Position numbers and translations under genes: made by a program | The notes under the pieces: generated by a model | Database searches by the model: none | What the model saw: only the letters and a program-made list of their open reading frames with translations | What the model was told of the DNA's origin: nothing | Assembly (NCBI GenBank): GCA_025465035.1 | Contig: JAODMH010000042.1 | Coordinates: 149-64,148 of the forward strand | Length of the DNA stretch: 64,000 bases | Source of the DNA: Microbacteriaceae bacterium | GTDB taxonomy: Bacteria > Actinomycetota > Actinomycetes > Actinomycetales > Microbacteriaceae | Direction: 5' to 3' | Shown: positions 7,201 through 28,071 of the stretch, piece after piece | Layout of the letters: each line of letters begins with the position of its first letter | Numbering within the stretch: position 1 is the first letter of the stretch

Positions 7201-7229
7201 CGGGGCTCTTCCTTGAGTATCTAGATTCG

Positions 7230-7244
7230 TCGAAACGTTTGCGC
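7230..7244. promoter_or_regulatory. LacI-family operator TCGAAACGTTTGCGC (copy 2) in the divergent GH172/lacI intergenic region
   Basis: Exact repeat of the 3569 and 8485 sites. Confidence 0.8.
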
Positions 7245-7372
7245 AACAGATGCTAACTGGCATAGTTGATCCTGGCAACTTCGTACGGCACAGAAGCCGA
7301 CGCAGTACATTCCAATGGCGCTGCCGTAGGCGGTGCCACGACCACCCGGCGCGACGAGGAATGAGGAGCGAG

Positions 7373-8386
7373 ATGGCAACGATTGTCGAAGTGGCCGCAC
7401 TTGCAGGTGTGTCGACGTCCACGGTCTCGCATGTGCTCAATGAGACGCGTCACGTCGAGCCCGCTACACGACGGCGTGTGCTCGAGGCAATCGAGAAGAC
7501 GTCGTACCGCCAGGACGCGCTCGCGCGGGCAATGCGACGCTCACGGACCGACAGCATCGGACTGGTGATCCCCGATGCCGGCGAGCCGGCGTTCGCCGAG
7601 ATGGTACACGGCGTAGAACATGCGGCGGCAAAACTCGGGCTCACCCTCCTTCTGTCCAACTCGGCGGAGAGTGCGGAACGCGAGTCGAAGGCCGTGCGCG
7701 TGCTGCTCGAGAGACGAGTCGACGGGCTGATCCTCGCTCGATCCGCGAACTCCTCCCGAGACATCGTTGACGACCTGAGGGGAGAGAACGCAGCGGTAGT
7801 TCTTCTGGACCGCATGTCGCCGGACTCGCCCTTCGATCAGGTGGGAACTGAGAACCGTCAGCCCATGCGTTCATTGGTCTCACACCTCGCAAGCGCGGGA
7901 CATCGACGAATGGTCCTGGTGGCGGGCGACATGCGAGTGCCGACGCTTCGTGAGCGAGCGGATGGCTTTGCGATGGGCATCGTCGAAGCCGGCTTGGACA
8001 TCTCAGAACAGACCGTCATCGCGTCTGATCAGACGGACCCGTCGCTCGCCGAAGCAATAACGCGGGCGGTCTCCGACCCTCGACGGCCGACGGCCTTCAT
8101 CGCGTGCAGCACCGTTCTCGCCGTGGCGACACTCGAACGGGTGAAGGCGGCGGGGAAGGCCATCCCGCGCGACTTCGCGTTCGCCACCTTCGACGGATTC
8201 AGTCACTCCGATCTCTTCGAACCGAGCATCACAACCGTGCGCCAGCCGGCCTTCGAGGTCGGTGTGGCCGCGGTGGACCTCCTCAAGGACCGCCTTGCCG
8301 GGTCCACCTCTCTCCCTCGAACCGTTCACCTCGCGCAAACCATCGAATACCGTGACAGCACTGGTCGCTTTGAACTCGCTCGGTGA
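7373..8386 (+). CDS. LacI-family transcriptional regulator
   Basis: MATIVEVAALAGVSTSTVSHVLN helix-turn-helix and periplasmic-binding-like C-terminus (ITTVRQP). Confidence 0.95.
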   Translation: MATIVEVAALAGVSTSTVSHVLNETRHVEPATRRRVLEAIEKTSYRQDALARAMRRSRTDSIGLVIPDAGEPAFAEMVHGVEHAAAKLGLTLLLSNSAESAERESKAVRVLLERRVDGLILARSANSSRDIVDDLRGENAAVVLLDRMSPDSPFDQVGTENRQPMRSLVSHLASAGHRRMVLVAGDMRVPTLRERADGFAMGIVEAGLDISEQTVIASDQTDPSLAEAITRAVSDPRRPTAFIACSTVLAVATLERVKAAGKAIPRDFAFATFDGFSHSDLFEPSITTVRQPAFEVGVAAVDLLKDRLAGSTSLPRTVHLAQTIEYRDSTGRFELAR

Positions 8387-8484
8387 TTCGGCGACGCGTC
8401 CCGTTCATCCGAACCACTCTTCATCGTTTGGTCGCCCAGCTTGACAAGCCAGAGCAAGCACGTTTACCGTACCTGATGAGAGAC

Positions 8485-8499
8485 GCGCAAACGTTTCGA
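8485..8499. promoter_or_regulatory. LacI-family operator (copy 3, reversed: GCGCAAACGTTTCGA) upstream of the ABC substrate-binding gene
   Basis: Exact reverse complement of the 3569 and 7230 sites. Confidence 0.8.
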
Positions 8500-8551
8500 T
8501 GAAACCGGACCACGGCGGCAAGAACGACCCGCCCCCATCAATGGAGATGAA

Positions 8552-9853
8552 ATGCACAGCACGCACCATCTGAGAAGGCTCACGGCGGCAGTCGCAGTCG
8601 TCGCCGCAGTCGCCCTGTCGATCGCGGGATGCTCGACGGCGTCCTCCGGCGGAGCGACAAAGATCAGCCTCTCGATGCAAAACCCGAACGTGAAGACGGC
8701 GGACCCGGCAACGTGGGCGATCGTCCACGCGTTCGAGAAGAAGAATCCGAACATTACCGTCACAGTCACCGGGCAGCCTGTCGCACAGCACCTACAAAAC
8801 CTCTCGGTCGCCGCGCAGAGCCACACGCTCCCTGACATCTTCTGGATCTACAAGGCGACCGCCGAGCAAATGAACAAGTCCGGCTATCTCATGGATCTTG
8901 CGCCGATGCTCAAGGACCTCGGCCTCACCGACAAGATTTCATCCAGCACTCTCGATAACTTCTCCACGGGCAAGGTCACGTATGGGGTCCCCTATCAGGG
9001 ACTCCTTACGGGCATTTGGTACAACGAGAAGATCCTGAGCGACAACGGCCTCACAGTGCCCAAGACCTTCGATGAGTTCCTTCACGTGGCCGTCACCTTG
9101 CACGCCAAGGGAATCACCACGCTCTCGGACGGCGCCAACCAGTCGTCGTTCTCGGTGTGGTCCTTCCTCGTCGACCTGGATCGATACGGCTGGGAGAGCA
9201 AGTATCAGGCGATACTCGCGGGCAAGGCGAGCTATGACAATCCAGATTTCATCCGGTTCTACGACAGCATCGCAAAGCTCCGGGAGGCGGGCGCATTCCC
9301 CTCGAACGTGACCACCCAGACCTACCAGCAAGCGGTGAATGAGTTCACCAGCGGCAAGGCGGCAATGCTCGACGCCGGCATTTGGGCATCGAGCGCCATC
9401 CAGGATTCCACCGTCGCCCCCGATGCCGGTTTCTGGGCCGGACCAACCTTCTCTGACGGAGTGGGCAAGCAAGACATCGTCATGAATGTCGCCTCGGCCC
9501 CATTCGCGGTGAGCGCGGACGTCAAGAAGGACAGCGCGAAGAGTGCTGCGGTAAAGAAGTTCATCGCGTTCTACTACAGCGATGCGGCTCAGCAGTTGCT
9601 GGTGGACAACGGTCAGCCGCCCGTGACGAACTACACGCCCAAGCTCGACGCCACCAAGCAGAGCGTGCTCAAGGGCGCGCTTGAGGCATCGACCGCGCCG
9701 GGCCTTACAAGCCCGCAGACGCAGCCCGACCTTGTGGTGTCGACCGCCGTTGCGAGCGCCATGTATGACAGCATCTATGGCGTGATCGAGGGGCAGCTCA
9801 CCTCGAAGCAAGCCGTGGACCTGGTCCAGAAAGCGATCGACGCAGGCAAGTAA
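8552..9853 (+). CDS. Sugar ABC transporter substrate-binding lipoprotein
   Basis: Lipobox SIAGC; PDIFW, GVPY, IWYNEKIL and PKTFDEF motifs of CUT1 binding proteins. Confidence 0.9.
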   Translation: MHSTHHLRRLTAAVAVVAAVALSIAGCSTASSGGATKISLSMQNPNVKTADPATWAIVHAFEKKNPNITVTVTGQPVAQHLQNLSVAAQSHTLPDIFWIYKATAEQMNKSGYLMDLAPMLKDLGLTDKISSSTLDNFSTGKVTYGVPYQGLLTGIWYNEKILSDNGLTVPKTFDEFLHVAVTLHAKGITTLSDGANQSSFSVWSFLVDLDRYGWESKYQAILAGKASYDNPDFIRFYDSIAKLREAGAFPSNVTTQTYQQAVNEFTSGKAAMLDAGIWASSAIQDSTVAPDAGFWAGPTFSDGVGKQDIVMNVASAPFAVSADVKKDSAKSAAVKKFIAFYYSDAAQQLLVDNGQPPVTNYTPKLDATKQSVLKGALEASTAPGLTSPQTQPDLVVSTAVASAMYDSIYGVIEGQLTSKQAVDLVQKAIDAGK

Positions 9854-9867
9854 CGTCGTAGCGATAC

Positions 9868-9899
9868 TGATCCGCCGGGCGTTTTCGCCCGGCGGATCA
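9868..9899 (+). terminator. Perfect 14-bp stem with a TTTT loop between the binding-protein and permease genes (attenuating or stabilising hairpin)
   Basis: TGATCCGCCGGGCG-TTTT-CGCCCGGCGGATCA. Confidence 0.7.
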
Positions 9900-9932
9900 T
9901 CCATGACCGAAACATACTGAACGGAGGATGGC

Positions 9933-10802
9933 ATGGTCTGGCTCAGCTCACGCTGGAAGATCGCCATCATGGCCGCACCGGCTCTGATCGTCTTCACAGC
10001 GCTGATCGTGTATCCGGTGATCTACTCCGCCGGCTACAGCCTCACTGACTTCGCCGGCTTCGGCGATCCGGCATTCGTCGGATTGAAGAACTACATCGAC
10101 CTGGGCAACGACCCGTTCTTTTGGTCCTCATTGAGGAACACGATCATTATTCTCGTAGTGAGCCTGGTGATCCTGGTGCCGGGATCGTTCGGCCTTGCGC
10201 TGTTACTTCGTCGACGTTTCCCCGGCGGAGGGGCACTGCGCGCCCTCGTCTTCGCACCGGTCATCATCGCGCCGATCCTGGTTGGACTTATCTGGGTGTT
10301 CATCCTCGACCCCAAGATCGGGCTCCTCGACCGGCTATTCGGTGCGCTCGGGTTGCCCCAGCCCGAGTGGATCGGCGGCAACGTACTGACCCCATACTCG
10401 GTAGCACTCGTTTTCGTCTGGGGCAGCGTGGGTTTCGCCATGACGATCTTCTATGCGGGGCTCCAGCAGCTGCCCACGGACATCCTCGAAGCGAGCTCGC
10501 TTGACGGCGCGAGCGGCTGGAAGCAACTCCTCTACATCACAGTGCCGCTCATGAAAGAGAGCTTCGCGATCGCGACAGTACTTCTCATCACCAACGTGTT
10601 CAAGATCTTCGAGCTCGTCTTCGTTCTCACCAATGGGGGACCGGTACATCGTTCGGAGACGCTCGTCAGCTACATGTACTTCATTACGTTCAACAACCAG
10701 CAATACGGGTCTGGAATGGCGCTTGCCGTCATCATCACCGTCCTGGGGGCGGTTGTATCGCTCGGCTATTTATTGCTCCTGAGAGGCAGGAAATCAGCGT
10801 GA
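9933..10802 (+). CDS. Carbohydrate ABC transporter permease
   Basis: Hydrophobic segments; EAA loop LEASSLDGASGWKQLLYITVPL. Confidence 0.92.
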   Translation: MVWLSSRWKIAIMAAPALIVFTALIVYPVIYSAGYSLTDFAGFGDPAFVGLKNYIDLGNDPFFWSSLRNTIIILVVSLVILVPGSFGLALLLRRRFPGGGALRALVFAPVIIAPILVGLIWVFILDPKIGLLDRLFGALGLPQPEWIGGNVLTPYSVALVFVWGSVGFAMTIFYAGLQQLPTDILEASSLDGASGWKQLLYITVPLMKESFAIATVLLITNVFKIFELVFVLTNGGPVHRSETLVSYMYFITFNNQQYGSGMALAVIITVLGAVVSLGYLLLLRGRKSA

Positions 10803-11662
10803 GTGCCCCCACGTCCCCACTCGGTCGCCGGAGTCGGCGCCGAACCGGAGGCATCGTCGCAGCAATCGCGGCTTACCTCATTACCTTCTTGATCCTCCTT
10901 CCGATCCTGTGGATCGTCCTGCTCTCATTCCAGTCGAGCGAGAAGATCCTCTCGAATCCCCTTGACCTGGGTTCACTCAGCTTGCTCAACTACGTGCACA
11001 CCGTCACGTCGCTCCCGCTGGCTCAGATGTACGGGAACACGATTCTCCTCGCCGTCGTATCCGTGACCATCGGCACCGCGATCTCGTTTATGGTGTCCTT
11101 CGCGTTGACTCGCATGATTTTCAGGCGGCGACGCGTACAGTCCGGGCTGCGGTTCTACATTCTCGCCGGGCTAGCCGTTCCGGTGTACATATTGCTGTTT
11201 CCCGTCTATCGACTGGACCTGGCGCTCGGAGTGTTCGGGTCATATGCCGCGCTGATCATCCCCTACGTCGGAGTGTCAATCCCTTTCAACACCCTCCTAC
11301 TTACTGGATTCCTGCGCGACCTTCCGACGGAAATCGAGGAGGCCGCGATCATCGACGGCGCCGGACTCACGCGACTCATTTGGAGCGTTGTGCTCCCGGT
11401 GATGAGGCCCGTCATCGCGACGGTACTGATTTTCAATGTCGTGTACGTCTTCAACGAATTTCCCTTCGCCTCGATCCTCATCAACAACCCAGACATGACG
11501 ACAGTCTCGCTCGCCGTCTCTCAGTTTCAGGGGCAATACAGCGTCGACTACGGCGGAATGATGGCCGCGGCCACCCTCGTGCTGTTGCCACAGCTGGTGA
11601 TCTACGCAATCTTCCAGAAGCAGGTGATAGCGGGGATGACGATGGGAGCCGTGAAGGGATAG
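10799..11662 (+). CDS. Carbohydrate ABC transporter permease
   Basis: EAA loop IEEAAIIDGAG; GTGA overlap with the previous gene. Confidence 0.92.
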   Translation: MSAPTSPLGRRSRRRTGGIVAAIAAYLITFLILLPILWIVLLSFQSSEKILSNPLDLGSLSLLNYVHTVTSLPLAQMYGNTILLAVVSVTIGTAISFMVSFALTRMIFRRRRVQSGLRFYILAGLAVPVYILLFPVYRLDLALGVFGSYAALIIPYVGVSIPFNTLLLTGFLRDLPTEIEEAAIIDGAGLTRLIWSVVLPVMRPVIATVLIFNVVYVFNEFPFASILINNPDMTTVSLAVSQFQGQYSVDYGGMMAAATLVLLPQLVIYAIFQKQVIAGMTMGAVKG

Positions 11663-16786: not shown

Positions 16787-17824
16787 GTGAGCGCCATCGA
16801 CCTGTTGAGCGGGCCGCGGGGGCGGCGACTCTGCCTGCGGATCGCCACGTCCAGCAGCGCCCAGGCATGGACCGCCATGCGCTACGCGGCGGAGAATCCC
16901 TCGAATACCGCCTTCGTGGACGGGCTGATCAAGACCCTTGACGACCTGGATCTGACCTGGGTCGCTACGACGACCGACGAGCGCGCCCTGCTCGGCCCAC
17001 TCTCCGAATCCGTCAATGCCGCGAGGTACTGGCAACCCCCGGACGAGGAGGATGACCTCCTGACACATCCCGCGATCGTCGACGCTCTGAGGCCCATCGC
17101 CGATGCCGTGGCCACAGCTCCGACCGGCGTGTGGTGGTCGAGCCCTATCGCACTGGCCGAACAGCGGCATGCGGAGTGGCTCGACGACGGACGGAAGACG
17201 CCACCATCGCTGGGCGGAGCTGCGTCAAAACTCGCCGACTGGAAAGCCGCGACACTCCTCAACGAACGGAGATCTCCCTCCCCTCGGCGAAAGGTGTCCG
17301 CACCGCTTAGCGGCCAATGGTGGTCGACGCCCGCCCTGTCACGACTGCCGACCACGACACGTGGCCTGCCCGACCTTGGCGCAGTGCAGCTCATGCTGGT
17401 CGAAGATGGTTTCGGCTGGGAGGACGCCCGCGTCACGCCCCTCGCGGCAAGACCCGGATGCCGCATCTATGAGATCACCGGCCCCGAAGCGTGGGTGGAG
17501 CTGGTCGGCCGCTATCCGCTGGACGTGAGCCGGTCGAAGCGACACGACTGGTGGCGCACAACCGGCCGTGACGGAACCTGGGAGGTCCCGGACTGGCAGG
17601 CCGTCGCCGCCGACTTCGACGGAGTGCATCTCACTGTCTCCGGCTACCTCTGCACGGCAGGTCGTGCGCTGCCCGTCGAGGGAGCCCACACGCTGCTCGC
17701 GGGTTGGGATCCCGACCTGACCTACTGGCTCACCGATGCTCTCTCGAATGGCGGACGCGCGGTGGATTGGCGCCGCGATGACTCCGTCTGGGCGATGCAC
17801 GTGTCTACCTCAGATACGAGTTGA
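16787..17824 (+). CDS. Hypothetical protein, Trp-rich (345 aa)
   Basis: Long ORF with natural composition and motif-like PDWQAVAADFDGVHL...AGWDPDLTYWL; no family recognised. Confidence 0.75.
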   Translation: MSAIDLLSGPRGRRLCLRIATSSSAQAWTAMRYAAENPSNTAFVDGLIKTLDDLDLTWVATTTDERALLGPLSESVNAARYWQPPDEEDDLLTHPAIVDALRPIADAVATAPTGVWWSSPIALAEQRHAEWLDDGRKTPPSLGGAASKLADWKAATLLNERRSPSPRRKVSAPLSGQWWSTPALSRLPTTTRGLPDLGAVQLMLVEDGFGWEDARVTPLAARPGCRIYEITGPEAWVELVGRYPLDVSRSKRHDWWRTTGRDGTWEVPDWQAVAADFDGVHLTVSGYLCTAGRALPVEGAHTLLAGWDPDLTYWLTDALSNGGRAVDWRRDDSVWAMHVSTSDTS

Positions 17825-18884
17825 CGATCAAGTCGCCGCGGATCTCGCGCAGTCGATCCAGCAGACGCTCGATGAGCGCGTCCGAGACACCGGACGTCGC
17901 GAGGTCGTGTCGCCCGAGCGGTTGGAGCTTGCCGCAGCGGATCCGCACCACTTCCCAGCCGACCGCGCGGAGCATCCGGTCCTTCCTGCGGTCGGTGTCC
18001 TCTCGACGACCGACGTGTTCGAGCCCGTCGCGGCCGGTCGTGTCGTACTCGATTGCCACACGAAGTTCCGGCATGACGATGTCCGGCCACACCTCGAGGT
18101 GAGTGAAGAACGGACGAGCGACGCGCACGGCGTTGCATCCGAAGTCCACGTCCAGCCGGGCGGTCAACCTTGCTCGAAGATCCCCCTCCGCGGCGGATGC
18201 CGGCTTCGGCGCCCATGGGCTGTGGAAGGCTTCTCCCAGCGCGAACCGATCCGCTGCCGCACGAGCGTGATAGCAGATTCGACAGCGTCGCCCGTTCAGT
18301 AGCTGCTCGATGCGCGCTTGGTAGCTGCCGTGGCCCACCGGGCAGATCCAGGAGTAACGCCGGCTCACCCCGGTCTCCATCGCAAGGTCGGCCCGCAATC
18401 GCGGCGCGACGATCGCGAGCAGCTCGTCACGGGTGACGGGCGCACCGTCCAGACGACGGCAGAGGTAACAGCGATCATCGTCCGGGTCGAACTCGATGCG
18501 ATCGACGTCCCGCGGATGACCACAGACATGGGGTTCGGCCTCGGTTGCAGCGGTGCGGATGGGGACTCGTCGTCGCACCGCCAGCGCCGCGCACTCCGGG
18601 CACCAGTTCGAACGGCGTCGCGAGCGACCGGGACGCTGCCGCTGCTCCTCGGGCGTGGCGACGAAACGATGTCCCGAGTCGCACTCCCACAGCAGGTAGA
18701 CCTCGGCGACTGGCGGCACCTGACTTAGGCTGACGCCGCCGTTGAGGTCGGGATGGTACTGGCGGATCAGCACCGGATAGCGCTCCCAGTCCGATCGGAA
18801 CCGCCCGACCGGATACGGCACCGCCGTGGCCTTCGACCACTGGCGTCGTGACCACCACTGCTCGACGTTCTCCGGCACGCGCAT
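17805..18884 (-). CDS. Zinc-ribbon repeat protein with a C-terminal DUF559/Vsr-like nuclease-fold domain
   Basis: WECDSGH..WCPEC, CGH..CYLC, WICPVGH..CRIC; WPDIVMPELRVAIEYD...DRRKDRMLRAVGWEVVRIR. Confidence 0.75.
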   Translation of the reverse strand: MRVPENVEQWWSRRQWSKATAVPYPVGRFRSDWERYPVLIRQYHPDLNGGVSLSQVPPVAEVYLLWECDSGHRFVATPEEQRQRPGRSRRRSNWCPECAALAVRRRVPIRTAATEAEPHVCGHPRDVDRIEFDPDDDRCYLCRRLDGAPVTRDELLAIVAPRLRADLAMETGVSRRYSWICPVGHGSYQARIEQLLNGRRCRICYHARAAADRFALGEAFHSPWAPKPASAAEGDLRARLTARLDVDFGCNAVRVARPFFTHLEVWPDIVMPELRVAIEYDTTGRDGLEHVGRREDTDRRKDRMLRAVGWEVVRIRCGKLQPLGRHDLATSGVSDALIERLLDRLREIRGDLIVNSYLR

Positions 18885-18938
18885 CCTCCCTCCCCGGAAT
18901 CTACGACCGGCCACCGACGACGAGTCGGCTGCGTATGG

Positions 18939-19922
18939 CTAATCGGCCGCGATCGGTACGGGGTGTCCAGAAGCGAGCGACTCCCGTGCGGCGAGCGACA
19001 CGGCCAGCGCGAGTATCGCCGAGTCGGTCGGGCAGAATTCGGGATCGCTGCCATTGCGCACACAGTCGAGGAAGTACTCGGCCTGGCGGGCGTATGGGTT
19101 GCCTGTATCAACCAGGCGGTTCTCGTTTCGGTCGGCCGTGACCAGCCGGATGGTGTCGTTGGCGGCTGGCGCCGCGGCTCCGGGCGCACCAGCATAGTGA
19201 TGATCGGCAAGACCGCGACTGCCGAGAAGCTCAAGCGATGAGGCGAAAGAGAAGCCGTCCGGCATCCCCATGAACCCGACCGCCTGCCCCGCCCCGCCGC
19301 CCTCGTAGTCGACGGAGACCTCCATCGGCCCGTCCGGGCGAAGGCGTCTCGCGGACGCCGACCGGGGCCGACCGAGGAACAGGTTCAGTTGATCGAAGTC
19401 GTGGATGCTGAAATCGACGAGCACACCACCAGATTTCGACTCATCGTGCCACCAGCTCGACGGGCCGGGGACAGCGCTGACCCGCTGGGCTCGCGCGCTC
19501 AGAACGGTTCCGACCGCGCCCACCTGCTCGCGAAGAGCGCGGTAGCCGCCGAAGAACCGGACGACGTGGGCCACCATCAGCATCCCGGCGCTCTGCGAAG
19601 CGACATCGCGGATGGCCACCGCATCCCGTATTGTCAGCGCGATCGGCTTCTCGAGCAGCACGTTCTTTCCGGCCATGAGTGATCGTATGCCGATATCGGC
19701 ATGCGTCGGGGTGGGAGTGCAGACCGAGACGATGTCGACATCCGGATCCCGTAGGACGACATCGAGATCGGTCACGAACCGCGCGACCGGTGCGTGCTCG
19801 AGCGGCGACCCTGGCGTCGGAGCGCAGACATATCTGATCGCGCTTCCCAGCCCGATCTCGGTCCAGGCCCGGGCGTGGGCGCGCGCCATGCCGCCCTGCC
19901 CGATGATCGCGATGCTCGACAT
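18939..19922 (-). CDS. Gfo/Idh/MocA-family NAD(P)-dependent oxidoreductase
   Basis: IAIIGQGGMA, VCTPTPTH, VLLEKP and DFSIHDFD motifs. Confidence 0.92.
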   Translation of the reverse strand: MSSIAIIGQGGMARAHARAWTEIGLGSAIRYVCAPTPGSPLEHAPVARFVTDLDVVLRDPDVDIVSVCTPTPTHADIGIRSLMAGKNVLLEKPIALTIRDAVAIRDVASQSAGMLMVAHVVRFFGGYRALREQVGAVGTVLSARAQRVSAVPGPSSWWHDESKSGGVLVDFSIHDFDQLNLFLGRPRSASARRLRPDGPMEVSVDYEGGGAGQAVGFMGMPDGFSFASSLELLGSRGLADHHYAGAPGAAAPAANDTIRLVTADRNENRLVDTGNPYARQAEYFLDCVRNGSDPEFCPTDSAILALAVSLAARESLASGHPVPIAAD

Positions 19923-19925
19923 GCT

Positions 19926-21824
19926 TCACACCTCGTCTTTCATGCTGAACTGATACTCGGCGGGGACCGTCCCGTCGACGACCTCGCGCCACAGTTGTGC
20001 CATGGCGTTCTCCCCCTCACGCAGGTCGGCCACCTCGATCCCGCCCACGAGGATGCTGGCCGCTCCTGCGATATCCCCCGACAGCGCCAATGCCTGCGCC
20101 TCGAGCAGCCTGACTCTCCCCTGCCGGGCGACGCCGACATCCGATCGGGAGATCAGGCTCAGCGCGAGGTCGGCCGCGCCGGCGCGGACCGCGGCTGTCG
20201 CCGCCTCGACGAGGAGGAACGCGTTCCCCGGTTCCAGGACGCACGCCCGTCGGTAGCATTCGAGACGGCCCGCCGTGTCCCTCGACAGCAGTGCGAGGCC
20301 GCGATGGGCGATCGCACTCTGCGCGATCTCGAGGAAGTCGGAATAGAGCGCACCTGCCTCATCGAATGCGCCAGCCGCGTGCTTCATCACGGCACGGTGC
20401 AGGATGGCGTTCGGTTCGTCCGGATGAGCCGCCAGCAGTCCCTCCCAATCGCTCCCGCGGACGAAGGTGGGCGATCCAGCGAAGCTCGCCCCCTCCAGGA
20501 GACCCAGCCACGACTGCTGGTCGGCGGTGATGGTCTCGCGCCCGAACGGCGTGCCGGTCTCGTCGATCCACGGACGATGACGGCGACGGGCAGACTCCAG
20601 CGCTCCCCATCCGGTTCCGGCGAGGACGCTCCGGTACGGAGCCAGATCGGCAAAGGTACGGGCCACCGCATGGGCCGATTCGAGTGTCCGCTCATCGATG
20701 AGGACACCGACGCGCTCGTCGGAGTGTCGCACGGCAGCGTCCCAACTGCGTCCGTGCGCGACCTCCGGATCCACCCGGGCGTTTCCATAGGCCTCGAGCC
20801 ACGACCACTCCGTCGCCGGCGGCATCTCGAGATGCTGGAACTGGGTCTGTGCCAGGCCCGCCTGGATCTCGGCGTAACGCCCGCCGCCTGGGTTCAGCCA
20901 TTCCTGCCAACGGTTGCCACCTGCACCCTGACCCCAGACGAAGAGCTTGCGGCCGTGGAGCTGCGGCGTCGACACCATGGCGAGCCCGTCGCCGTCGGCG
21001 TCCGCGTTCAGGATCCACCGGCGGCGTTCGGCCGGGAGGTCGAAGAAGAAGTCCCGTGCGCGAGAACTCCTGGTCGGCCAGGTGCAATCGACACCATCGT
21101 CGTCGGTCGGAACGACCCGAGAGATCCCGCCATCGTAGTCGCTCGCAAACGCCGTATCGGCCGGCGCAATTATCCGACTCTGCCGGGTCTCGGGCACTGC
21201 GGCATTCGTCCACCAGTACATCGGCACGGAAAAGTCGTTGGGGTTCCTCAGTCGGATCGCGACGAAGAGCGCGTCGGAGTCGTCGGGCAACCAGGCATCG
21301 ATCTGGAACACGACCTCGCGAAGGCGATCGAATTCCCACATCCGCAGAACATCGAGGCCGTCCGGCGTGCGCACCAGTGCCGCGTGCAGCGGACTGCAGG
21401 TGGTCGGCGAGTGCCCTCTCGTTCCGATGTTCCACTCGATGCCTCCGGCGAACCAGGCGTTGCGCAGGGCCAGGTTCGCGAACTGAATGGTGTCGGGAGA
21501 ATGGAGCAGGTGCTTGCCACGCGTCTTGTCGAAGAGCTCCCAGAGTCGCCCACCGAGTTCAGGGAGGAAGACGGCGCGCAGTCGCTCGTTCTCGAGCACG
21601 GCCGTCGTCAGGGTTCGGTCGGAACGGCTTCGCCCGTAGCCGTTCTGTTCCTGATAGGGATAGAGATTCGCCGGATTGCCGTAGAGCGCGCCGTCGATGA
21701 TCTCCTGCGGGATGGCGCCCGTGATGCGATACGGGTCTTCGAGGGGAGCTCCCACCATCGGCAGCGGGTCGTCGCCGCCAAGTTCTGGAAGGCGGAACGT
21801 GCGCGACTCGATCCGCACCGTCAT
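19926..21824 (-). CDS. DUF5107-like domain protein with TPR-like C-terminus
   Basis: VLENERLRAVFLPELGGRLW, NLALRNAWFAGGIEWN, WWTNAAVP, LFVWG and YAEIQAG motifs. Confidence 0.78.
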   Translation of the reverse strand: MTVRIESRTFRLPELGGDDPLPMVGAPLEDPYRITGAIPQEIIDGALYGNPANLYPYQEQNGYGRSRSDRTLTTAVLENERLRAVFLPELGGRLWELFDKTRGKHLLHSPDTIQFANLALRNAWFAGGIEWNIGTRGHSPTTCSPLHAALVRTPDGLDVLRMWEFDRLREVVFQIDAWLPDDSDALFVAIRLRNPNDFSVPMYWWTNAAVPETRQSRIIAPADTAFASDYDGGISRVVPTDDDGVDCTWPTRSSRARDFFFDLPAERRRWILNADADGDGLAMVSTPQLHGRKLFVWGQGAGGNRWQEWLNPGGGRYAEIQAGLAQTQFQHLEMPPATEWSWLEAYGNARVDPEVAHGRSWDAAVRHSDERVGVLIDERTLESAHAVARTFADLAPYRSVLAGTGWGALESARRRHRPWIDETGTPFGRETITADQQSWLGLLEGASFAGSPTFVRGSDWEGLLAAHPDEPNAILHRAVMKHAAGAFDEAGALYSDFLEIAQSAIAHRGLALLSRDTAGRLECYRRACVLEPGNAFLLVEAATAAVRAGAADLALSLISRSDVGVARQGRVRLLEAQALALSGDIAGAASILVGGIEVADLREGENAMAQLWREVVDGTVPAEYQFSMKDEV

Positions 21825-22840
21825 CCGGCCACCGGTCCTTCCGCGGTCGATGAAGGCCGCAACTCCGAGACACCCCGCTGAAGGCGGGAGAACAGCTCGC
21901 TGTCGATAACCACGCCCGCTCGCCGCAGGCCAAGAATGGCCGCGCCCACCACGCCGTCCGGAACCGCGATCAACTCCACGCCACCCGCTGCCGCCGTCAG
22001 CGGCGCCGCGAAGATCGAGGGGGCGACTCGCATTCCGGCGGCGAGCACGCTTCCGCCCAACACGACAGGTCCATTCATGCCAGGGTCCCGTGTGGCAGCA
22101 AGGAGCTGGGCGAGCGACCCGGCCGCCGAGGTCAGAATTTCGCGGGCGACCTCATCCTCCGAGGCGGCGAACGCCAACGGTGCGAATCGGGCGAGGCCGA
22201 TCGGCCGCAGCGCGTAGGTCTCCTCCATCAGCGTGACCAGCGAATGAGGGCGTCCCCGCACGCTGCCGAGTTCCGTCCCGATGTGCAGGGAATCGAGCAC
22301 CAGCCCGGTCAGCGCCGTGTCGGGGCCGAGACCGTCGAGCGACGCGACCACGGCGCGCATGACCTGGTGCCCGATCCAGTACCCCGATCCCCCGTCGCCC
22401 AGCAGCCAGCCGGTGCCTCCGCGCGCGAGCGCCAACCGGCCACCGGTGATGCGCCCGGCGACCGTGCCGGTTCCTGCGATCAGGGCGTAGCCGTCGCTCT
22501 CGAAGGTTCCGGAGAAGTAGGTGCCAAGAAGATCTGGCTCGATGACGGGTTCGCCGCCGAAACCGAGGGCGGCGAATCGCTCCGACAGTCGCTCGATGAG
22601 CAGCGGTGACACGCTGCCAGCCAGGGCGATGATGGCCGCGGATTCGTGATTGGTCGTGGACTCGTCCCCGGCCACGGCGCGTTCGGCGGCCTTGCCGAGT
22701 TCCGTGACCGCGCCATCGACTCCGGATGCCGTTGGATTGCCGCTTCCGGCGCGACCGTAGCCGAAGCATCGTCCGGCCAGATCGAGGACGACGGCTCGCG
22801 TGGACGTGCCTCCGGCGTCAATTGCGAGAATCTTGCGCAT
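21821..22840 (-). CDS. BadF/BadG/BcrA/BcrD-type sugar kinase (N-acetylglucosamine kinase-like)
   Basis: IDAGGTSTRA, IAGTGT, GGTGWLLGDGGSGYWIG, LGGSV. Confidence 0.9.
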   Translation of the reverse strand: MRKILAIDAGGTSTRAVVLDLAGRCFGYGRAGSGNPTASGVDGAVTELGKAAERAVAGDESTTNHESAAIIALAGSVSPLLIERLSERFAALGFGGEPVIEPDLLGTYFSGTFESDGYALIAGTGTVAGRITGGRLALARGGTGWLLGDGGSGYWIGHQVMRAVVASLDGLGPDTALTGLVLDSLHIGTELGSVRGRPHSLVTLMEETYALRPIGLARFAPLAFAASEDEVAREILTSAAGSLAQLLAATRDPGMNGPVVLGGSVLAAGMRVAPSIFAAPLTAAAGGVELIAVPDGVVGAAILGLRRAGVVIDSELFSRLQRGVSELRPSSTAEGPVAG

Positions 22841-22932
22841 TGTGATCTTTTCGAAATCTTATGAGCTCAGGCACACTGTACTGTAAGAATAATTTTCGCA
22901 GCACTTCGATGAAGGAGAAATGGATTCTCATC

Positions 22933-23892
22933 ATGGTGCCATCCAGCGTCACGACATCGGCCGAGCATGACTCCGCGGTAGCCAACCGCATCCAGTCCCG
23001 GCTACCGGAGATGTCGGACGCCATGGCGAAGATCGCCGAGTACCTCCTGGAGCATCCGCAGGCACCTCTCAAGCTGTCCATCGGTCAGTTGGCGGAACAG
23101 GCGGGAACCTCCGCGGCGACGGTCACCCGGTTCTGCCGAATGATCGGATACGCCGGATACGCGCCGTTCCGCGTGAGCATCGCGACCGACTTCGGCCGCA
23201 GCACGGCGCGTGACTCGTGGAAGACGGACATCGGCCGGGCGTTCGGCCCCGACGACTCTCCGGGGGACGTGCTCAGCACCCTGATCAACGCCCATTCGCG
23301 CACCCTGCGCGAGACTGCGGCGGCCATCGACCTGCCGGCCATGAAGGTGATATCGAAGCGGATCGCCGAGAGCCATCACGTCGATATCTATGGCGTCGGC
23401 GGCAGCGCCATGCTGGCGGACGAGATGCAGGCCCGGCTCTATCGGATCGGGATCAATACCCACATGTGGGCCGAGGTGCATTCCGGTCTCACGAGCGCCG
23501 CCATCCAGAACAAGAACTGCGTCGCCATCGGCATCTCGAACACAGGACGCACCGAGGAGACCATCCAGATGCTGCGCCAGGCCGGTCGAGCGGGGGCACT
23601 GACGGTGGCGATCAGCAACAACCCGACGTCGCCGCTCGCAGAAGTCGCCGACCTGCGGATCATCACCTCCGTGTACGAACAGTTCCTGCAGCCAGACGAT
23701 CTCTCCGCCAAGCACGGGCAGCTGCTCGTGCTCGACCTGCTCTACCTCCTCATCGCGCAAGAGAATTTCGACCGGTCGATCGACAATCTCGCCGCATCGG
23801 CACTGGCGGTCTCCACACATCGCCGACCGAGGCGCGCCCCGATCGCCCTCAAACAGAGCCGCGAAGCCCAACCCTCCGCGGAAAACATCTAG
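22933..23892 (+). CDS. MurR/RpiR-family transcriptional regulator
   Basis: IGQLAEQAGTSAATVTRFCRMIGYAGY helix-turn-helix plus SIS domain (ISNTGRT). Confidence 0.92.
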   Translation: MVPSSVTTSAEHDSAVANRIQSRLPEMSDAMAKIAEYLLEHPQAPLKLSIGQLAEQAGTSAATVTRFCRMIGYAGYAPFRVSIATDFGRSTARDSWKTDIGRAFGPDDSPGDVLSTLINAHSRTLRETAAAIDLPAMKVISKRIAESHHVDIYGVGGSAMLADEMQARLYRIGINTHMWAEVHSGLTSAAIQNKNCVAIGISNTGRTEETIQMLRQAGRAGALTVAISNNPTSPLAEVADLRIITSVYEQFLQPDDLSAKHGQLLVLDLLYLLIAQENFDRSIDNLAASALAVSTHRRPRRAPIALKQSREAQPSAENI

Positions 23893-23900
23893 GAGCCGAA

Positions 23901-24674
23901 GTGTCGGAGACCATTACGCAGTCAGAGCTGGTGGACGGCTTCACCGGCGAGGTACTGTCGCGGCTCGGCGAGCTCGCCGCGATCGCGGCCGAGGGGGGCT
24001 TCGACGACGCCATCGACGTTCTCGTGACGGCCATCGAGAGCGGCGGTGTGATCCAGGCCTTTGGAACCGGGCACTCCGAGGCCTTCGCCATGGAGATCGC
24101 GGGGCGAGCGGGCGGGCTCATCCCGACGAACAAGATCGCTCTGCGTGACGTCGTCCTGCGTGGTGATCTCGGCGTCGATGCGCTCAGCGGAGCCAAACTC
24201 GAACGGAATCCCGAGATCGCCGAGCAGCTCTACGCGATCTCCAACGTCGGCCCCAATGACGTCTTCATCATCGCGTCGAACTCCGGCGTCAACGGGTCGA
24301 TCGTCGGGCTCGCTCTGCTGGCCAAATCCAAGGGTCATCCGGTGATCGCCGTCACGAGCCTCGCCCACACCATGGCCGTCGAGCCCAAGCATGCGAGCGG
24401 CAAGCGGTTGCGGGATGTCGCGGATGTCGTCCTCGACAACAGGGCGCCGTTCGGCGACGCCACGCTCGAACTCGCCGGCGGAGTCCCGGTCGGCGCCGTC
24501 TCGTCGATCACTGCCGCATACATCGCGCAGGTGCTCACGATCGGCACGGCACAGCGACTGGCGGCGGCGGGGACGACCCCGCCCCTCTATATTTCGGCGA
24601 ACATCCCGGGCGGCGACGAGCACAACGAGGCGCTCGAAAAGTTGTACCGGAACAGGATCCGGCGCGACGCCTGA
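23901..24674 (+). CDS. SIS-domain sugar isomerase-like protein
   Basis: FGTGHS, GRAGGL, IASNSGVN, AVTSLAH, SANIPGGD; GTG start after AGGAG. Confidence 0.85.
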   Translation: MSETITQSELVDGFTGEVLSRLGELAAIAAEGGFDDAIDVLVTAIESGGVIQAFGTGHSEAFAMEIAGRAGGLIPTNKIALRDVVLRGDLGVDALSGAKLERNPEIAEQLYAISNVGPNDVFIIASNSGVNGSIVGLALLAKSKGHPVIAVTSLAHTMAVEPKHASGKRLRDVADVVLDNRAPFGDATLELAGGVPVGAVSSITAAYIAQVLTIGTAQRLAAAGTTPPLYISANIPGGDEHNEALEKLYRNRIRRDA

Positions 24675-24770
24675 CAGCTCAGTACGACACATACGGAACA
24701 CGAAACAAAAGAAAAGTGGAACCAGATCGAGTAGCACAGCCCGTCAACCACGAATGGAAGGCAGTACACA

Positions 24771-26177
24771 ATGACTATCAAGGAACAGCCGCTTCAGCGG
24801 CGGGACTTTCTCCGCGGTGCACTTCTCACGGCGGTGTTGATACCCGCCGGGGGAATGCTTGCATCCTGCGTCGGCGGTGGTGGTTCGTCCACCTCCCCGG
24901 GCGGCACGGTTACCAAAACAAATCCCTTCGGCATGGCGGACAAGTCGACGGTCGACGCTGTCATCTTCAAGGGTGGATACGGCATCGACTACGCGACCTT
25001 CGCCGGCCAGGTCGTCGACAAGCTGCAGAAGGGCTCGACCGTCAAGGTCACCGCCCAGACCAATATCGCGCAAACCCTGCAGCCGCGCTTTGTCGGTGGT
25101 AATCCGCCGGACGTGATCGACAACAGCGGAGCGAACCTCATCGGCATCAACACTATCCGTGCACAGCTCGAGGACCTCACTTCCGTGATCAACGCGAAGA
25201 ACTACGAGGGCACGACCATCAAGGACACTCTCTACGCGGGCGTCATCAAACCGGGCACCTTCGATGGCAAGTTCGTTCAGCTGAATTACGTGCTGACGGT
25301 CTACGCCCTCTGGTATTCGGCATCATTGTTCGAGACGAACGGCTGGACAGTTCCGAAGACCTGGGATGAGATGCTCGTCCTCGGCGGTAAGGCCAAGTCA
25401 CAGGGCAAGTACCTGTTCGGTTGGGGCAAGGAAGCCGCGACCTACTACCAGACGATGGCGATCGCATCAGCGATCAAGGAGGGTGGCGACGAGGTTCGCC
25501 TGGCGCTGGAGAACCTCAAGGCAGGATGTTGGTCGCTTCAGCCCGTCCAGGACGTCTTCAATGGAATGAAGAAGATCATCGACGCCGGCTACATGCAGCC
25601 CGGTGGCGCCGGCACGCAGTTCACCGCTGCCCAGGCGCAATGGAGCAACGATGAGAAGTTCATCCTGTACCCCTCCGGTGGCTGGATCGAGAATGAGATG
25701 AAGACCCAGACCAAGGCGGGCTTCACGCTGACCGGGGCACCAGAGCCCACCGTCACGAGCGGCTCGAAGCTCCCGTACACGGCGCTGCACTCGACGGCTG
25801 GTGAGGGCTATATCGTGCCGTCGCAGGCCAAGAACGTCGCGGGTGGCAAGGAGTTCCTGCGCGCCATGCTCTCGCACGACGCCGCGGTCAACTTCGCGAA
25901 GACGACCTTCTCGTCGACGATCGTCAAGGGCACAATCCCGGCCGACGGGTTCGGCTCTACGGCGCTCGTGTCGCAGGTCAAGCTGTTGGAGAACGCCGGG
26001 TCCGACGTCTTCTCGTGGAACTTCGTCGACCTGTACGGGCTCAACACCGACCAGCTCGTCGTGTGGAACACGTTCCTGCAGGGTGGCTCGGATGTCGCGG
26101 CCCTGACGTCCGGCCTGCAGAGCATTACCGACAAGGTTCGCAACGACAGCTCCGTGAAAAAGGTCACGGTCACATGA
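24771..26177 (+). CDS. ngcE: NgcE-type N-acetylglucosamine/chitooligosaccharide ABC substrate-binding lipoprotein with twin-arginine signal
   Basis: QRRDFL...LASC; NPFG...VDAVIFKGGYG, LQPRFVGGNPPDVIDNSGA, FIVPS..KN..GGKEFLRAMLS resemble the NgcE family. Confidence 0.75.
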   Translation: MTIKEQPLQRRDFLRGALLTAVLIPAGGMLASCVGGGGSSTSPGGTVTKTNPFGMADKSTVDAVIFKGGYGIDYATFAGQVVDKLQKGSTVKVTAQTNIAQTLQPRFVGGNPPDVIDNSGANLIGINTIRAQLEDLTSVINAKNYEGTTIKDTLYAGVIKPGTFDGKFVQLNYVLTVYALWYSASLFETNGWTVPKTWDEMLVLGGKAKSQGKYLFGWGKEAATYYQTMAIASAIKEGGDEVRLALENLKAGCWSLQPVQDVFNGMKKIIDAGYMQPGGAGTQFTAAQAQWSNDEKFILYPSGGWIENEMKTQTKAGFTLTGAPEPTVTSGSKLPYTALHSTAGEGYIVPSQAKNVAGGKEFLRAMLSHDAAVNFAKTTFSSTIVKGTIPADGFGSTALVSQVKLLENAGSDVFSWNFVDLYGLNTDQLVVWNTFLQGGSDVAALTSGLQSITDKVRNDSSVKKVTVT

Positions 26178-27175
26178 CCGCGGTCGTCCCACCTTCCACC
26201 ACACCGGGCGGCGGCAGAACCACCGCCGCCCGGCGGTGGAGCCGCCGGGACCTGACCTTCGACAAGATCAGCTTCCTGATCGTGTTCCTGGTGGTTCCGG
26301 TGGTCGGCTACGTCATCTTCGTGGTCTCGCCGTTCATCCAGGCGTTCTACTACTCATTGACGGACTGGTCCGGCTTCACGGCCGGCATGAACTTCATCGG
26401 GTTGAGCAACTACGGCAAGTTGTTCGCCGACAACATCTTCATGAGGGCCGTCGGCAACAGCATCGTGCTGGTGCTGGTCCTGCCGATCGTCACGGTCGTG
26501 CTCAGCCTGATCCTCGCATCGTTGGTCACCGTCGGCGGTCCGAGCAACGGCCCGATCAGAGGCTTGCGCAACTCCAGCGTGTATCGGGTGATCTCCTTCT
26601 TCCCATACGTGATTCCGGCTATCGTCATCGGCCTCATCTGGAGCCAGGTCTACGACCCCAGCCACGGCATCCTGAACGGCCTTCTCACGGGAATCGGGCT
26701 TGACCAGTTCCAGTCATTCGCCTGGCTCGGCGAACAGAGGACCGCGATGATCGCGACCATGTTCGTGATCGTCTGGGGGCTGGTCGGGTTCTATATGGTG
26801 CTGTTCGTGGCCGCGATCAAGGGAATCCCGGCGGAGATCTTCGAAGCGGCCAGGATCGATGGGGCAGGACGGTTCCGCACCGCGGTGACCATCACGGTGC
26901 CGATGATCCGGGACAACATCCAGACCGCGTACATCTATATGGGCATCCTGGCGCTCGACGCCTTCGTCTACATGGCGGCGCTGAACCCCGGCGGCGGTCC
27001 TGGTAACTCGACGCTCGTGATGTCGCAGCAACTGTTCACGACGGCGTTCACCAAGGGCCAGTTCGGCCTGGCCTGTGCCATGGGCGTCGTGCTCGCCACT
27101 ATCACCCTCCTGTTCGCGGGAGTCGTCTTTCTGGTGAACAGACTCACCGGCGGAAATAACGACGTGGCCGAATGA
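26174..27175 (+). CDS. Carbohydrate ABC transporter permease (NgcF-like)
   Basis: EAA loop FEAARIDGAG; ATGA overlap. Confidence 0.9.
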   Translation: MTAVVPPSTTPGGGRTTAARRWSRRDLTFDKISFLIVFLVVPVVGYVIFVVSPFIQAFYYSLTDWSGFTAGMNFIGLSNYGKLFADNIFMRAVGNSIVLVLVLPIVTVVLSLILASLVTVGGPSNGPIRGLRNSSVYRVISFFPYVIPAIVIGLIWSQVYDPSHGILNGLLTGIGLDQFQSFAWLGEQRTAMIATMFVIVWGLVGFYMVLFVAAIKGIPAEIFEAARIDGAGRFRTAVTITVPMIRDNIQTAYIYMGILALDAFVYMAALNPGGGPGNSTLVMSQQLFTTAFTKGQFGLACAMGVVLATITLLFAGVVFLVNRLTGGNNDVAE

Positions 27176-28071
27176 CGAACATCAAAGCTCAGGCGCTGGC
27201 CGGCCCGTCGATGTCACTCAGCCGACGCCGGACGAAGTCCACGGCCGGTGACAGAGTGGTCGGCTCGGTGTCGCACGTCATCCTGACCATCTGGTCGCTG
27301 ATCGTGGTACTGCCGCTGCTCTGGACGATCATGTCGTCGTTCAAGACCAGTTCGGAGATCTTCGCGTCGCCGTTCACCCTCCCGTCGCGCTGGAGCTTCG
27401 ACAACTACGTGAACGCGTGGACGACCGCCGGCATCGGAAGCTTCCTCCTCAACACGATCGTGGTCGTCTTCGGCGCGCTCATCGTCACCATGCTGTTCGG
27501 GTCCATGTGTGCGTACGTTCTCGCGCGATTCCAGTTCCCCGGCAGCCGGGCCATCTACTATCTGATGCTCGCAGGCCTGACGTTCCCGATCTTCCTGGCG
27601 ATCGTTCCGTTGTTCTTCGTGCTGAAGAGCATCGCCCTGCTGAACACCCTGCCCGGCCTCATCCTCACCTACGCGGCCTTCGCACTGCCGTTCACGGTGT
27701 TCTTCATGTTCTCGTTCTTCAAGGCGCTGCCGAACTCAATAGCCGAGGCGGCAGCGCTGGATGGCGCGGGCGAATGGCGCACCTTCTTCGAGGTGATGCT
27801 GCCGATGGCGAGGCCCGGGCTGGCAACCGTGGCCATCCTGAACTTCGTCGGGCTCTGGAACCAGTTCCTGTTGCCGGTCGCTTTGAATTCGGACGTCAAG
27901 AACTACGTGCTCACCCAGGGCATGGCGTCGTTCGCCTCCCAGGCGGGATACTCGGTAGACTTCGGCGCGCTGTTCGCGGGCGTCGTCATCACCGTCGTCC
28001 CGGTGCTGATCGTCTATCTGATCTTCCAGCGTCAGCTGCAGGGTTCGGTGTCGCAGGGGACCAACAAGTAG
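27172..28071 (+). CDS. Carbohydrate ABC transporter permease (NgcG-like)
   Basis: EAA loop AEAAALDGAG. Confidence 0.9.
   Translation: MTNIKAQALAGPSMSLSRRRTKSTAGDRVVGSVSHVILTIWSLIVVLPLLWTIMSSFKTSSEIFASPFTLPSRWSFDNYVNAWTTAGIGSFLLNTIVVVFGALIVTMLFGSMCAYVLARFQFPGSRAIYYLMLAGLTFPIFLAIVPLFFVLKSIALLNTLPGLILTYAAFALPFTVFFMFSFFKALPNSIAEAAALDGAGEWRTFFEVMLPMARPGLATVAILNFVGLWNQFLLPVALNSDVKNYVLTQGMASFASQAGYSVDFGALFAGVVITVVPVLIVYLIFQRQLQGSVSQGTNK

Follow-up and report, generated by a model that had tools for sequence, protein, structure and literature searches.

Association of a mutarotase-fold DUF5107 protein with an NgcEFG-type amino-sugar operon in a Microbacteriaceae genome

Gene content and organization of the locus

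The locus described here (positions 18939 to 28071) lies in a 64,000-nucleotide (nt) stretch, referred to as the window, of contig JAODMH010000042.1 (contig positions 149 to 64,148) from the assembly of a Microbacteriaceae bacterium (GCA_025465035.1). This host genome (G000), that of a soil-type actinobacterium, is 92% complete, comprises 229 contigs and has a G+C content of approximately 65%. The locus consists of two divergently oriented gene sets, and its central subject is a gene encoding a protein of the DUF5107 family, which stands between genes for a sugar kinase and an oxidoreductase and opposite a set of amino-sugar import genes.

The first gene of the minus-strand operon encodes a BadF/BcrAD-family sugar kinase of 339 amino acids (aa) (21821..22840; PF01869, 72 bits). 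It is followed by the gene for the 632-aa DUF5107 protein (19926..21824; PF17128, 124 bits), which combines an aldose-1-epimerase-fold sandwich with tetratricopeptide repeats (TPR), and by the last gene of the operon, which encodes a 327-aa NAD(P)-dependent oxidoreductase of the Gfo/Idh/MocA type (18939..19922; PF01408, PF22725, PF02894). Across a divergent control region of 92 nt (22841..22932), the plus strand carries a MurR/RpiR-family regulator with HTH_6 and SIS domains (22933..23892; PF01418, PF01380), a stand-alone SIS_2 protein of the UPF0309/NagS family (257 aa, 23901..24674; NF002805, 273 bits versus a cut-off of 135), and an NgcE-type ATP-binding cassette (ABC) substrate-binding lipoprotein of 468 aa (24771..26177). 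Two ABC permease genes complete the set, the NgcF-like one (26174..27175; PF00528) overlapping with its start the stop of the binding-protein gene, and the NgcG-like one (27172..28071; PF00528, 76 bits) following it. All eight genes occur in the divergent order given in a preliminary description of this DNA, which had also reported tight coupling of the DUF5107 gene to its neighbors. Both junctions were read directly in the sequence: the kinase stop and the DUF5107 start share an ATGA overlap, and the DUF5107 stop codon (TGA) is separated by 3 nt (AGC) from the ATG of the oxidoreductase gene.

The assignment of the binding protein as NgcE-type is based on its match to TIGR03851 (589 bits versus a cut-off of 400), a lipoprotein signal comprising a twin-arginine motif and a lipobox (LASC), and the adjacent pair of BPD_transp_1 permeases. 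As in the NgcEFG importer for N-acetylglucosamine (GlcNAc) and chitobiose of Streptomyces, an NgcE equivalog binding protein and two permeases are present and an ABC ATPase gene is absent from the locus; the gene after the second permease encodes an unrelated OmdA-like protein.

No glycoside hydrolase (GH), nagA or nagB gene was found within 18939 to 28071. The absence of these genes, which the preliminary description had emphasized, holds for this interval and not for the genome, as nagA, nagB and a NagZ-type GH3 are encoded on another contig (C153). There, a canonical cluster (L106:1908-11248) contains genes for a ROK-type regulator, a binding protein, a permease, GH3, a ROK kinase, nagB and nagA, and its GH3 exceeds the cut-off of a beta-N-acetylhexosaminidase model (217 versus 207 bits). 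Neither GH18 nor GH20 was found in the host genome. Given the canonical cluster on C153, the locus in the window is a second amino-sugar locus, and it probably serves a different substrate.

Linkage of DUF5107 to amino-sugar modules

Amino-sugar markers were sought within 9 kb of DUF5107 in 97 loci encoding the short form of the protein, 80 of them from species genomes, 16 from an order-wide sample of 251 Actinomycetales genomes, and one being the window. A module of kinase, RpiR, SIS and NgcEFG genes accompanied DUF5107 in 22 of the 97 loci, in at least four gene orders. Two further loci contained NgcEFG alone, divergent from DUF5107, and one contained the oxidoreductase-DUF5107 pair alone, which brings the loci with such neighbors to 25 of 97. 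The arrangement found in the window, kinase-DUF5107-oxidoreductase, was present at 13 loci. Another linked architecture runs kinase-(nagB)-nagA-DUF5107-AgaS-like SIS-ROK, continuing in some loci with PfkB and class II aldolase genes, and the others are a fully co-linear version and one in which DUF5107 is divergent from SIS-NgcEFG-kinase. The kinase gene adjoins DUF5107 in 21 related loci of several gene orders. The other neighbors of DUF5107 in the 22 linked loci are almost mutually exclusive, with only the oxidoreductase in 12, only the AgaS-like set in 8, both in 1 and neither in 1. These recurring arrangements support the view that the DUF5107 gene belongs integrally to amino-sugar operons and is conserved in them.

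In the DUF5107 tree, module-linked genes form one clade of 27 members (21 linked), which is sister to a clade of 52 unlinked members. The two loci with NgcEFG alone, and one additional locus with the module, fall on separate branches, and NgcE-linked genes are found in three branches. Co-occurrence with such transporters elsewhere, on which the preliminary description had made its proposal depend, is seen in all three, where DUF5107 adjoins NgcE-type importers. Some loci classed as unlinked are still located near sugar genes, one with an ABC importer and GH20 and two, in separate genomes, with an aldo-keto reductase beside DUF5107. Among 20 genomes with short-form DUF5107, a set in which kin are not independent, 17 encode a UPF0309 protein and 19 encode MurQ. 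The context of distant short-form representatives comes only from short metagenome contigs, which contain little neighborhood.

Two placements in the DUF5107 tree (L050 and L083) conflict with the taxonomic label of the contig. A gene from a contig labeled Sporosarcina beigongshangi (Bacillota) is nested in the Micrococcaceae clade next to Specibacter, and one from a contig labeled Curtobacterium nests within Arthrobacter. These are likely due to contaminated or mislabeled assemblies or to recent transfer. In one Microbacteriaceae metagenome-assembled genome, the permease end of the module is adjacent to a gene encoding a 773-aa fusion of two beta-lactamase-family domains (L026:1404-3725; PF13354, PF00144).

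The importer sub-clade

A tree of 32 NgcE-type binding proteins, 20 of them encoded adjacent to DUF5107, was computed with an arbitrary root and has moderate support. In this tree, 19 of the 20 DUF5107-adjacent proteins, including that of the window, form one clade (support 91) that cuts across taxonomy. It takes in the two family f20 members, which are encoded next to DUF5107 genes of a distant lineage, and leaves out the binding proteins of the same-family genomes G077 and G186, which lack this adjacency. Much of the clade reflects shared descent; on present sampling, DUF5107 appears to go with a particular importer sub-type.

The lower pathway also differs from canonical NgcEFG-fed routes, which proceed via NagK-NagA-NagB or via AgaK-AgaA-AgaS-PfkB-aldolase. 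Related loci attach nagA/nagB or AgaS-like, PfkB and aldolase genes, whereas the locus in the window has no lower-pathway genes, contains DUF5107 and Gfo/Idh/MocA genes instead, and encodes a binding protein of the DUF5107-adjacent sub-clade.

Fold and conserved residues of the DUF5107 protein

The match to PF17128 covers residues 50 to 334 (124.3 bits versus a cut-off of 24.4). No signal peptide was detected in the protein, which is cytoplasmic. Structure prediction, named as a check in the preliminary description, yielded an aldose-1-epimerase fold with a TPR cap: a beta-sandwich (residues ~1 to 355) is followed by a C-terminal TPR domain of about 14 helices (residues ~360 to 615; TPR profile matches at residues 460 to 610). 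The AlphaFold2 model has a predicted local distance difference test (pLDDT) score of 83.9 and a predicted template modeling (pTM) score of 0.87. Sequence comparison identified a single solved relative, BDI_1685 of Parabacteroides distasonis (PDB 5CD6), which stems from structural genomics and on which the full model superposes with a Z score of 32.7 (532 residues; root mean square deviation, 3.5). As the superposition extends over the full-length protein, the TPR domain is best regarded as a fixed cap and not as a loose adaptor.

Every one of the next-ranking structural matches is a genuine aldose-1-epimerase or hexose-6-phosphate mutarotase (3MWX, 3OS7, 1L7J, 2CIQ and 3NRE; Z scores of 17 to 22 over about 250 to 290 aligned residues; Foldseek probability, 1.00). 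Polysaccharide lyases (PL) of families PL26 and PL4 scored below these (Z scores of 15.9 and 13.9), and matches to GH94, GH38 and GH2 enzymes involved only their non-catalytic sandwich domains (Z scores of about 13 to 15). No GH or PL Pfam match was found in the protein, nor was a match to the GalM family (PF01263) at an E value of ≤0.01. A feature search of the ESM Atlas returned only sub-threshold leads, namely, the mutarotase-clan families DUF4432 and DUF4380.

Ten residues are invariant in an alignment that includes E. coli YphG (25% identity): G127, G128, E130, N132, H138, N194, N207, K293, Y317 and E319. Of these, H138 is the lone histidine that is invariant across the family. The catalytic set of GalM, which we take to be His104, His175 and Glu309 in E. 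coli numbering, was compared with these positions by hhalign. The DUF5107 alignment gave no match to a single GalM sequence; against a small GalM/YphB alignment, a match of 31% probability placed the strand of GalM His175 at residues 200 to 208. In this low-confidence alignment, N207 and A208 occupy the relevant positions, and no histidine is present in residues 190 to 220. E319, located in a Y-x-E-x-Q strand, is judging from its position a plausible counterpart of Glu309. The protein has the beta-sandwich fold of GalM, YeaD and YphB (PF01263) and plausible counterparts of the catalytic glutamate (E319) and one histidine (H138), but it differs from GalM in having no PF01263 match and, in the alignment just described, no His175-aligned histidine, in the additional invariant residues E130, K293 and Y317, and in its obligatory TPR cap. 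We infer from these comparisons of sequence and predicted structure that the scaffold is mutarotase-like and the catalytic set non-canonical.

Both BDI_1685 and YphG share with the window protein the PF17128 match and the combination of a mutarotase-like sandwich with TPR. YphG additionally shares invariant E130, N132, H138, N207, K293, Y317 and E319, as well as its position in a sugar-import operon with an oxidoreductase: alongside the DUF5107 protein YphG, the E. coli yphGFEDCB operon encodes a Zn-dehydrogenase, an ABC importer and, as a protein in its own right, the canonical mutarotase YphB. However, the window protein is a short form (632 versus 1,093 aa) and is encoded with N-acetylhexosamine genes rather than with a ribose-type ABC importer. 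The DUF5107 family is very large: a search at an E value of ≤0.001 returned 2,612 clusters at 50% identity.

The kinase and the SIS protein

The kinase scored 84 bits against NagK_SO3507, under the cut-off of 370. Its solved relatives are the S. tokodaii hexokinase, the N-acetylmuramic acid (MurNAc)/GlcNAc kinase MurK and human NAGK, the latter two at 43 to 48 bits.

The stand-alone SIS protein is about one third identical to NagS (104 bits; PDB 9EOL) and scored 114 bits against 3CVJ. NagS (SCO4393) is the GlcNAc-6-phosphate dehydratase of Streptomyces, described in 2025 (PMC12680351; PDB 9EOL). The two proteins share the UPF0309 family and the catalytic residues: all residues essential in NagS (H53, R64, E94 and D179) are kept, as is N228, and S91 is replaced by alanine. 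Orthology to NagS has been defined by at least 58.7% identity together with the nagS-dmdR1 synteny of Streptomycetaceae (PMC12680351), whereas the SIS protein of the window is only about one third identical and is encoded next to RpiR and NgcE, not dmdR1, and so falls outside this definition. Homologues with 26 to 36% identity from outside the Streptomycetaceae did not dehydrate GlcNAc-6-phosphate (PMC12680351); no sign that MurNAc-6-phosphate had been tried as a substrate was found in that study. With this locus, a member of the recently described NagS family that is not itself NagS is found within an actinobacterial module of wide distribution.

Replacement of the MurNAc-6-phosphate etherase MurQ by the UPF0309 SIS protein was considered and is unsupported. 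The only match to the MurQ model NF003915 in the locus lies in the RpiR gene, within its SIS domain (32 bits versus a cut-off of 168), the stand-alone SIS gene giving none, and no MurQ above the cut-off was found in the host genome. However, across the 251 Actinomycetales genomes, in which kin are not independent, 32 of the 52 UPF0309-positive genomes also encode MurQ, and the association between the two is positive, not complementary.

Several UPF0309 loci (L119, L107, L122) contain genes for an AgaS-like SIS protein, ROK, PfkB and class II aldolase, which links the UPF0309 SIS family to a tagatose-type (N-acetylgalactosamine-like) lower pathway in some Actinomycetales. No close AgaS-like gene was found in the host genome.

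The Gfo/Idh/MocA oxidoreductase

The oxidoreductase fits no characterized subfamily, scoring 18 to 101 bits against NCBIfam equivalog models with cut-offs of 350 to 750. Against the models for glycoside, disaccharide and levoglucosan 3-dehydrogenases (NF058561, NF058563 and NF052479), it reached 18, 30 and 61 bits, compared with cut-offs of 750, 650 and 650, respectively. Its best solved relative is 1,5-anhydro-D-fructose reductase (2GLX, 72 bits). An orthologue (E value of ≤1e-50) was detected in 2 of the 251 Actinomycetales genomes, the host (G000) and G186, in both cases beside DUF5107, and the gene is present in 13 of the 22 module-linked DUF5107 loci. Homologues with 52 to 55% identity occur in other contexts, without DUF5107; one of them, a 52%-identical protein in Salinibacterium, has as its neighbors an ABC importer, a PIG-L deacetylase and a TIM-barrel protein resembling xylose isomerase. 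Overall, the distribution of the close orthologues makes the oxidoreductase look like a dedicated partner of DUF5107. A predicted complex of the two proteins received a score of 0.00 in a run without controls, which speaks neither for nor against their interaction.

The arrangement resembles the BT_2158/BT_2159, levoglucosan (LgdA) and C-glycoside (DgpA) systems of redox-assisted glycoside cleavage, in that a sugar-processing partner and an importer are combined with an NAD(P) oxidoreductase of the Gfo/Idh/MocA superfamily. In contrast to those systems, the oxidoreductase scores far under the respective cut-offs, its partner has a mutarotase fold instead of being a TIM-barrel lyase, and it is dispensable in 9 of the 22 linked loci.

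The core module and the apparent lack of a glycosidase

The preliminary description had reasoned that a glycosidase was missing from the locus and that DUF5107 could fill this role. This reasoning is not supported. Among 20 UPF0309 loci sampled across families (20-kb intervals), 12 have NgcEFG next to SIS, together with a kinase or RpiR or both, and no DUF5107, GH3 or GH20 homologue; the core module thus occurs without DUF5107 or such a glycosidase homologue. Furthermore, the canonical cluster on C153 has its own GH3, and the DUF5107 fold is nearer to true aldose-1-epimerases than to any catalytic GH domain. Two of the 12 loci belong to the same-family genomes G077 and G186. In G186, the module is located in one place and the oxidoreductase-DUF5107 pair in another. 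DUF5107 is not needed by the module. The broader proposal that DUF5107 cleaves or modifies an imported GlcNAc-containing glycan is partly supported, by operon membership, importer linkage and the apparent partnering with the oxidoreductase.

Proposed role of DUF5107 and competing explanations

What follows on substrate, order of steps and chemistry is read from the gene content, fold, linkage and residue conservation reported above. On balance, we consider it slightly more likely than not that the locus is a second, RpiR-controlled amino-sugar locus in which DUF5107 is an add-on enzyme acting on the imported free sugar. In the core module, which is widespread in Actinomycetales, the sugar imported by the NgcEFG-type ABC transporter would be phosphorylated at position 6 by the BadF-type kinase, and the NagS-family SIS enzyme would then convert the resulting N-acetylhexosamine-6-phosphate in its open-chain form, feeding either a NagA/NagB or an AgaS/PfkB/aldolase (tagatose) branch. 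To this module DUF5107 would be an optional addition, associated with a single sub-type of NgcE binding protein and, within the clade of the window protein, with an oxidoreductase of its own as well. DUF5107 may be the first enzyme to act on the sugar once it is in the cytoplasm, while it is still free and unphosphorylated. The reaction would take place at the anomeric carbon or an adjacent position and employ E319 together with H138 and E130, and in cooperation with the oxidoreductase DUF5107 could widen the range of the core module.

The chemistry of this step is more tentative. That DUF5107 splits a glycoside or disaccharide of N-acetylhexosamine and so releases reducing sugars, the redox-assisted version included, is the single most likely choice, albeit one we put forward with less than even confidence. 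A further generalization, which seems to us rather unlikely, is that DUF5107 proteins including E. coli YphG constitute a new class of cytoplasmic glycoside-cleaving enzymes with their active center in a mutarotase-derived sandwich under a TPR lid. The window protein would then split an N-acetylhexosamine disaccharide imported via a dedicated NgcE sub-type, with one product passing to the kinase/NagS-like branch and the other to the dedicated oxidoreductase.

Non-canonical anomerization or epimerization comes close behind as an alternative, likewise with less than even confidence. In this explanation, DUF5107 is an isomerase, i.e., a divergent anomerase or epimerase that prepares an N-acetylhexosamine or its 6-phosphate for the kinase, the SIS protein or an anomer-specific oxidoreductase, with no bond being cut. 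The fold argues for it, as the matches ranking after 5CD6 are all genuine epimerases or mutarotases (Z scores of 17 to 22), clearly above the GH accessory domains (Z scores of about 14), and E319 lies in the Y-x-E-x-Q strand where, judged by position, GalM Glu309 would be expected. Likewise, the core module needs no glycosidase, and a mutarotase working alongside a sugar dehydrogenase is well known. However, there is no PF01263 match and no histidine at the GalM His175 position (N207/A208), and a permanent TPR cap and a size of 640 to 1,100 aa exceed the needs of mutarotation. DUF5107 is probably not a plain mutarotase, because the yph operon already encodes the canonical mutarotase YphB beside YphG, a His175 counterpart is missing, and operons with only NgcEFG and DUF5107 exist, which would be odd for a helper anomerase.

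The preliminary description had raised the possibility of a more specific scheme, in which DUF5107 and the Gfo/Idh/MocA enzyme jointly cleave the imported GlcNAc-containing glycan by redox-assisted (3-keto) chemistry. Such chemistry is established for Gfo/Idh/MocA enzymes of other glycoside systems. The scheme is in line with the restriction of the oxidoreductase orthologue to positions beside DUF5107 in the 251 genomes, with its presence in 13 of the 22 linked loci, and with the neighbors of the Salinibacterium homologue (TIM-barrel, PIG-L, importer), which are the usual company of keto-sugar pathways. However, the oxidoreductase is missing from 9 of the 22 linked loci, where the AgaS/ROK/PfkB/aldolase set takes its place, it reaches only 18 to 61 bits with the models for BT_2158, BT_2159 and levoglucosan dehydrogenase (cut-offs of 650 to 750), homologues with 52 to 55% identity occur without DUF5107, and the known systems use a TIM-barrel lyase rather than a mutarotase fold. 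We therefore regard this scheme as quite unlikely.

A non-catalytic DUF5107 that senses sugar or acts as a scaffold to modulate the transporter, kinase or regulator is very unlikely: TPR domains usually mediate protein contacts, many orthologues stand alone, away from sugar genes, and the module works without DUF5107, but the placement of the TPR domain against the sandwich is that of the 5CD6 crystal structure, invariant polar residues are dense among members with 25% identity, and the operon positions are typical of enzymes.

Several observations weigh against the preferred reading of DUF5107 as an add-on enzyme of amino-sugar catabolism. In 72 of the 97 DUF5107 loci, no amino-sugar marker was found within 9 kb. 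The unlinked 52-member clade consists of Micrococcaceae, and in the one annotated member (L038) the gene is located between an ABC exporter and McrBC genes; three genomes with DUF5107 orthologues of the unlinked type encode no UPF0309 protein at all. A large part of the linkage count is due to shared descent, as the majority of module-linked genes belong to a single clade. The 12 core modules without DUF5107 point in the same direction, as does G077, which has a full aldolase-PfkB-ROK-AgaS-like-kinase arm and in whose genome no DUF5107 was found. With regard to the protein itself, its closest matches in structure are to mutarotases rather than glycosidases, the loop with the highest conservation (residues 116 to 141) has a pLDDT below 50 in the AlphaFold2 model, and the residue equivalences with GalM rest on the 31%-probability hhalign match. 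Finally, we know of no DUF5107 member with a measured activity, despite the existence of an E. coli K-12 member and a solved structure, and judging by titles and abstracts none of the papers found on DUF5107 and YphG looked like a functional study.

For a large orphan family, the tie of DUF5107 to one importer sub-type and its own oxidoreductase offers a practical way into function. The locus narrows the problem to a short 632-aa form with a defined importer sub-type, a dedicated oxidoreductase and culturable relatives that carry the same operon (Glaciihabitans sp. UYNi722, Plantibacter, Frigoribacterium and Parafrigoribacterium soli). If the chemistry were glycoside cleavage in a mutarotase fold, the protein would found a new family of carbohydrate-active enzymes; if it were an isomerase, a step would still be added to amino-sugar catabolism.

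Control region and flanking genes

The reading frame of the RpiR gene has a formally possible start at 22861. In an alignment of approximately 15 related loci, the first 70 bases of this nominal open reading frame are conserved as DNA and not as protein. In view of this pattern, a GGAG motif and the alignment of relatives, the start is probably the ATG at 22933, which leaves the divergent control region of 92 nt. Within this region, conserved at the DNA level in the same set of loci, lie a palindrome, TTTCGAAA (22849 to 22856), and a conserved 22-nt block, CTGTACTGTAAGAATAATTTTC (22875 to 22896); both are candidate RpiR operator or promoter elements, as judged from their conservation and position. 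A scan for sigma-70 promoters and terminators was uninformative, with promoters scoring no better than in shuffled sequences. The RpiR protein itself scored 153 to 163 bits against MurR/RpiR and AlsR models, under their cut-offs.

The flanks of the locus are unrelated to it, with a zinc-finger/DUF559 protein on one side and, on the other, genes for the OmdA-like protein, FlhA and an endonuclease; a sugar-acid lower pathway beside the oxidoreductase was not found in these flanks. The gene directly downstream of the oxidoreductase (17805 to 18914, minus strand) encodes a 369-aa protein with two DUF4379 treble-clef zinc fingers and a weakly DUF559/REase-like C terminus. Farther away in the window, a DUF2961 (GH172-type) protein (5842 to 7440, minus strand) is encoded beside a LacI regulator (7250 to 8386), a sugar ABC binding protein and permeases, and this region (5842 to 11662) looks like a separate oligosaccharide locus.

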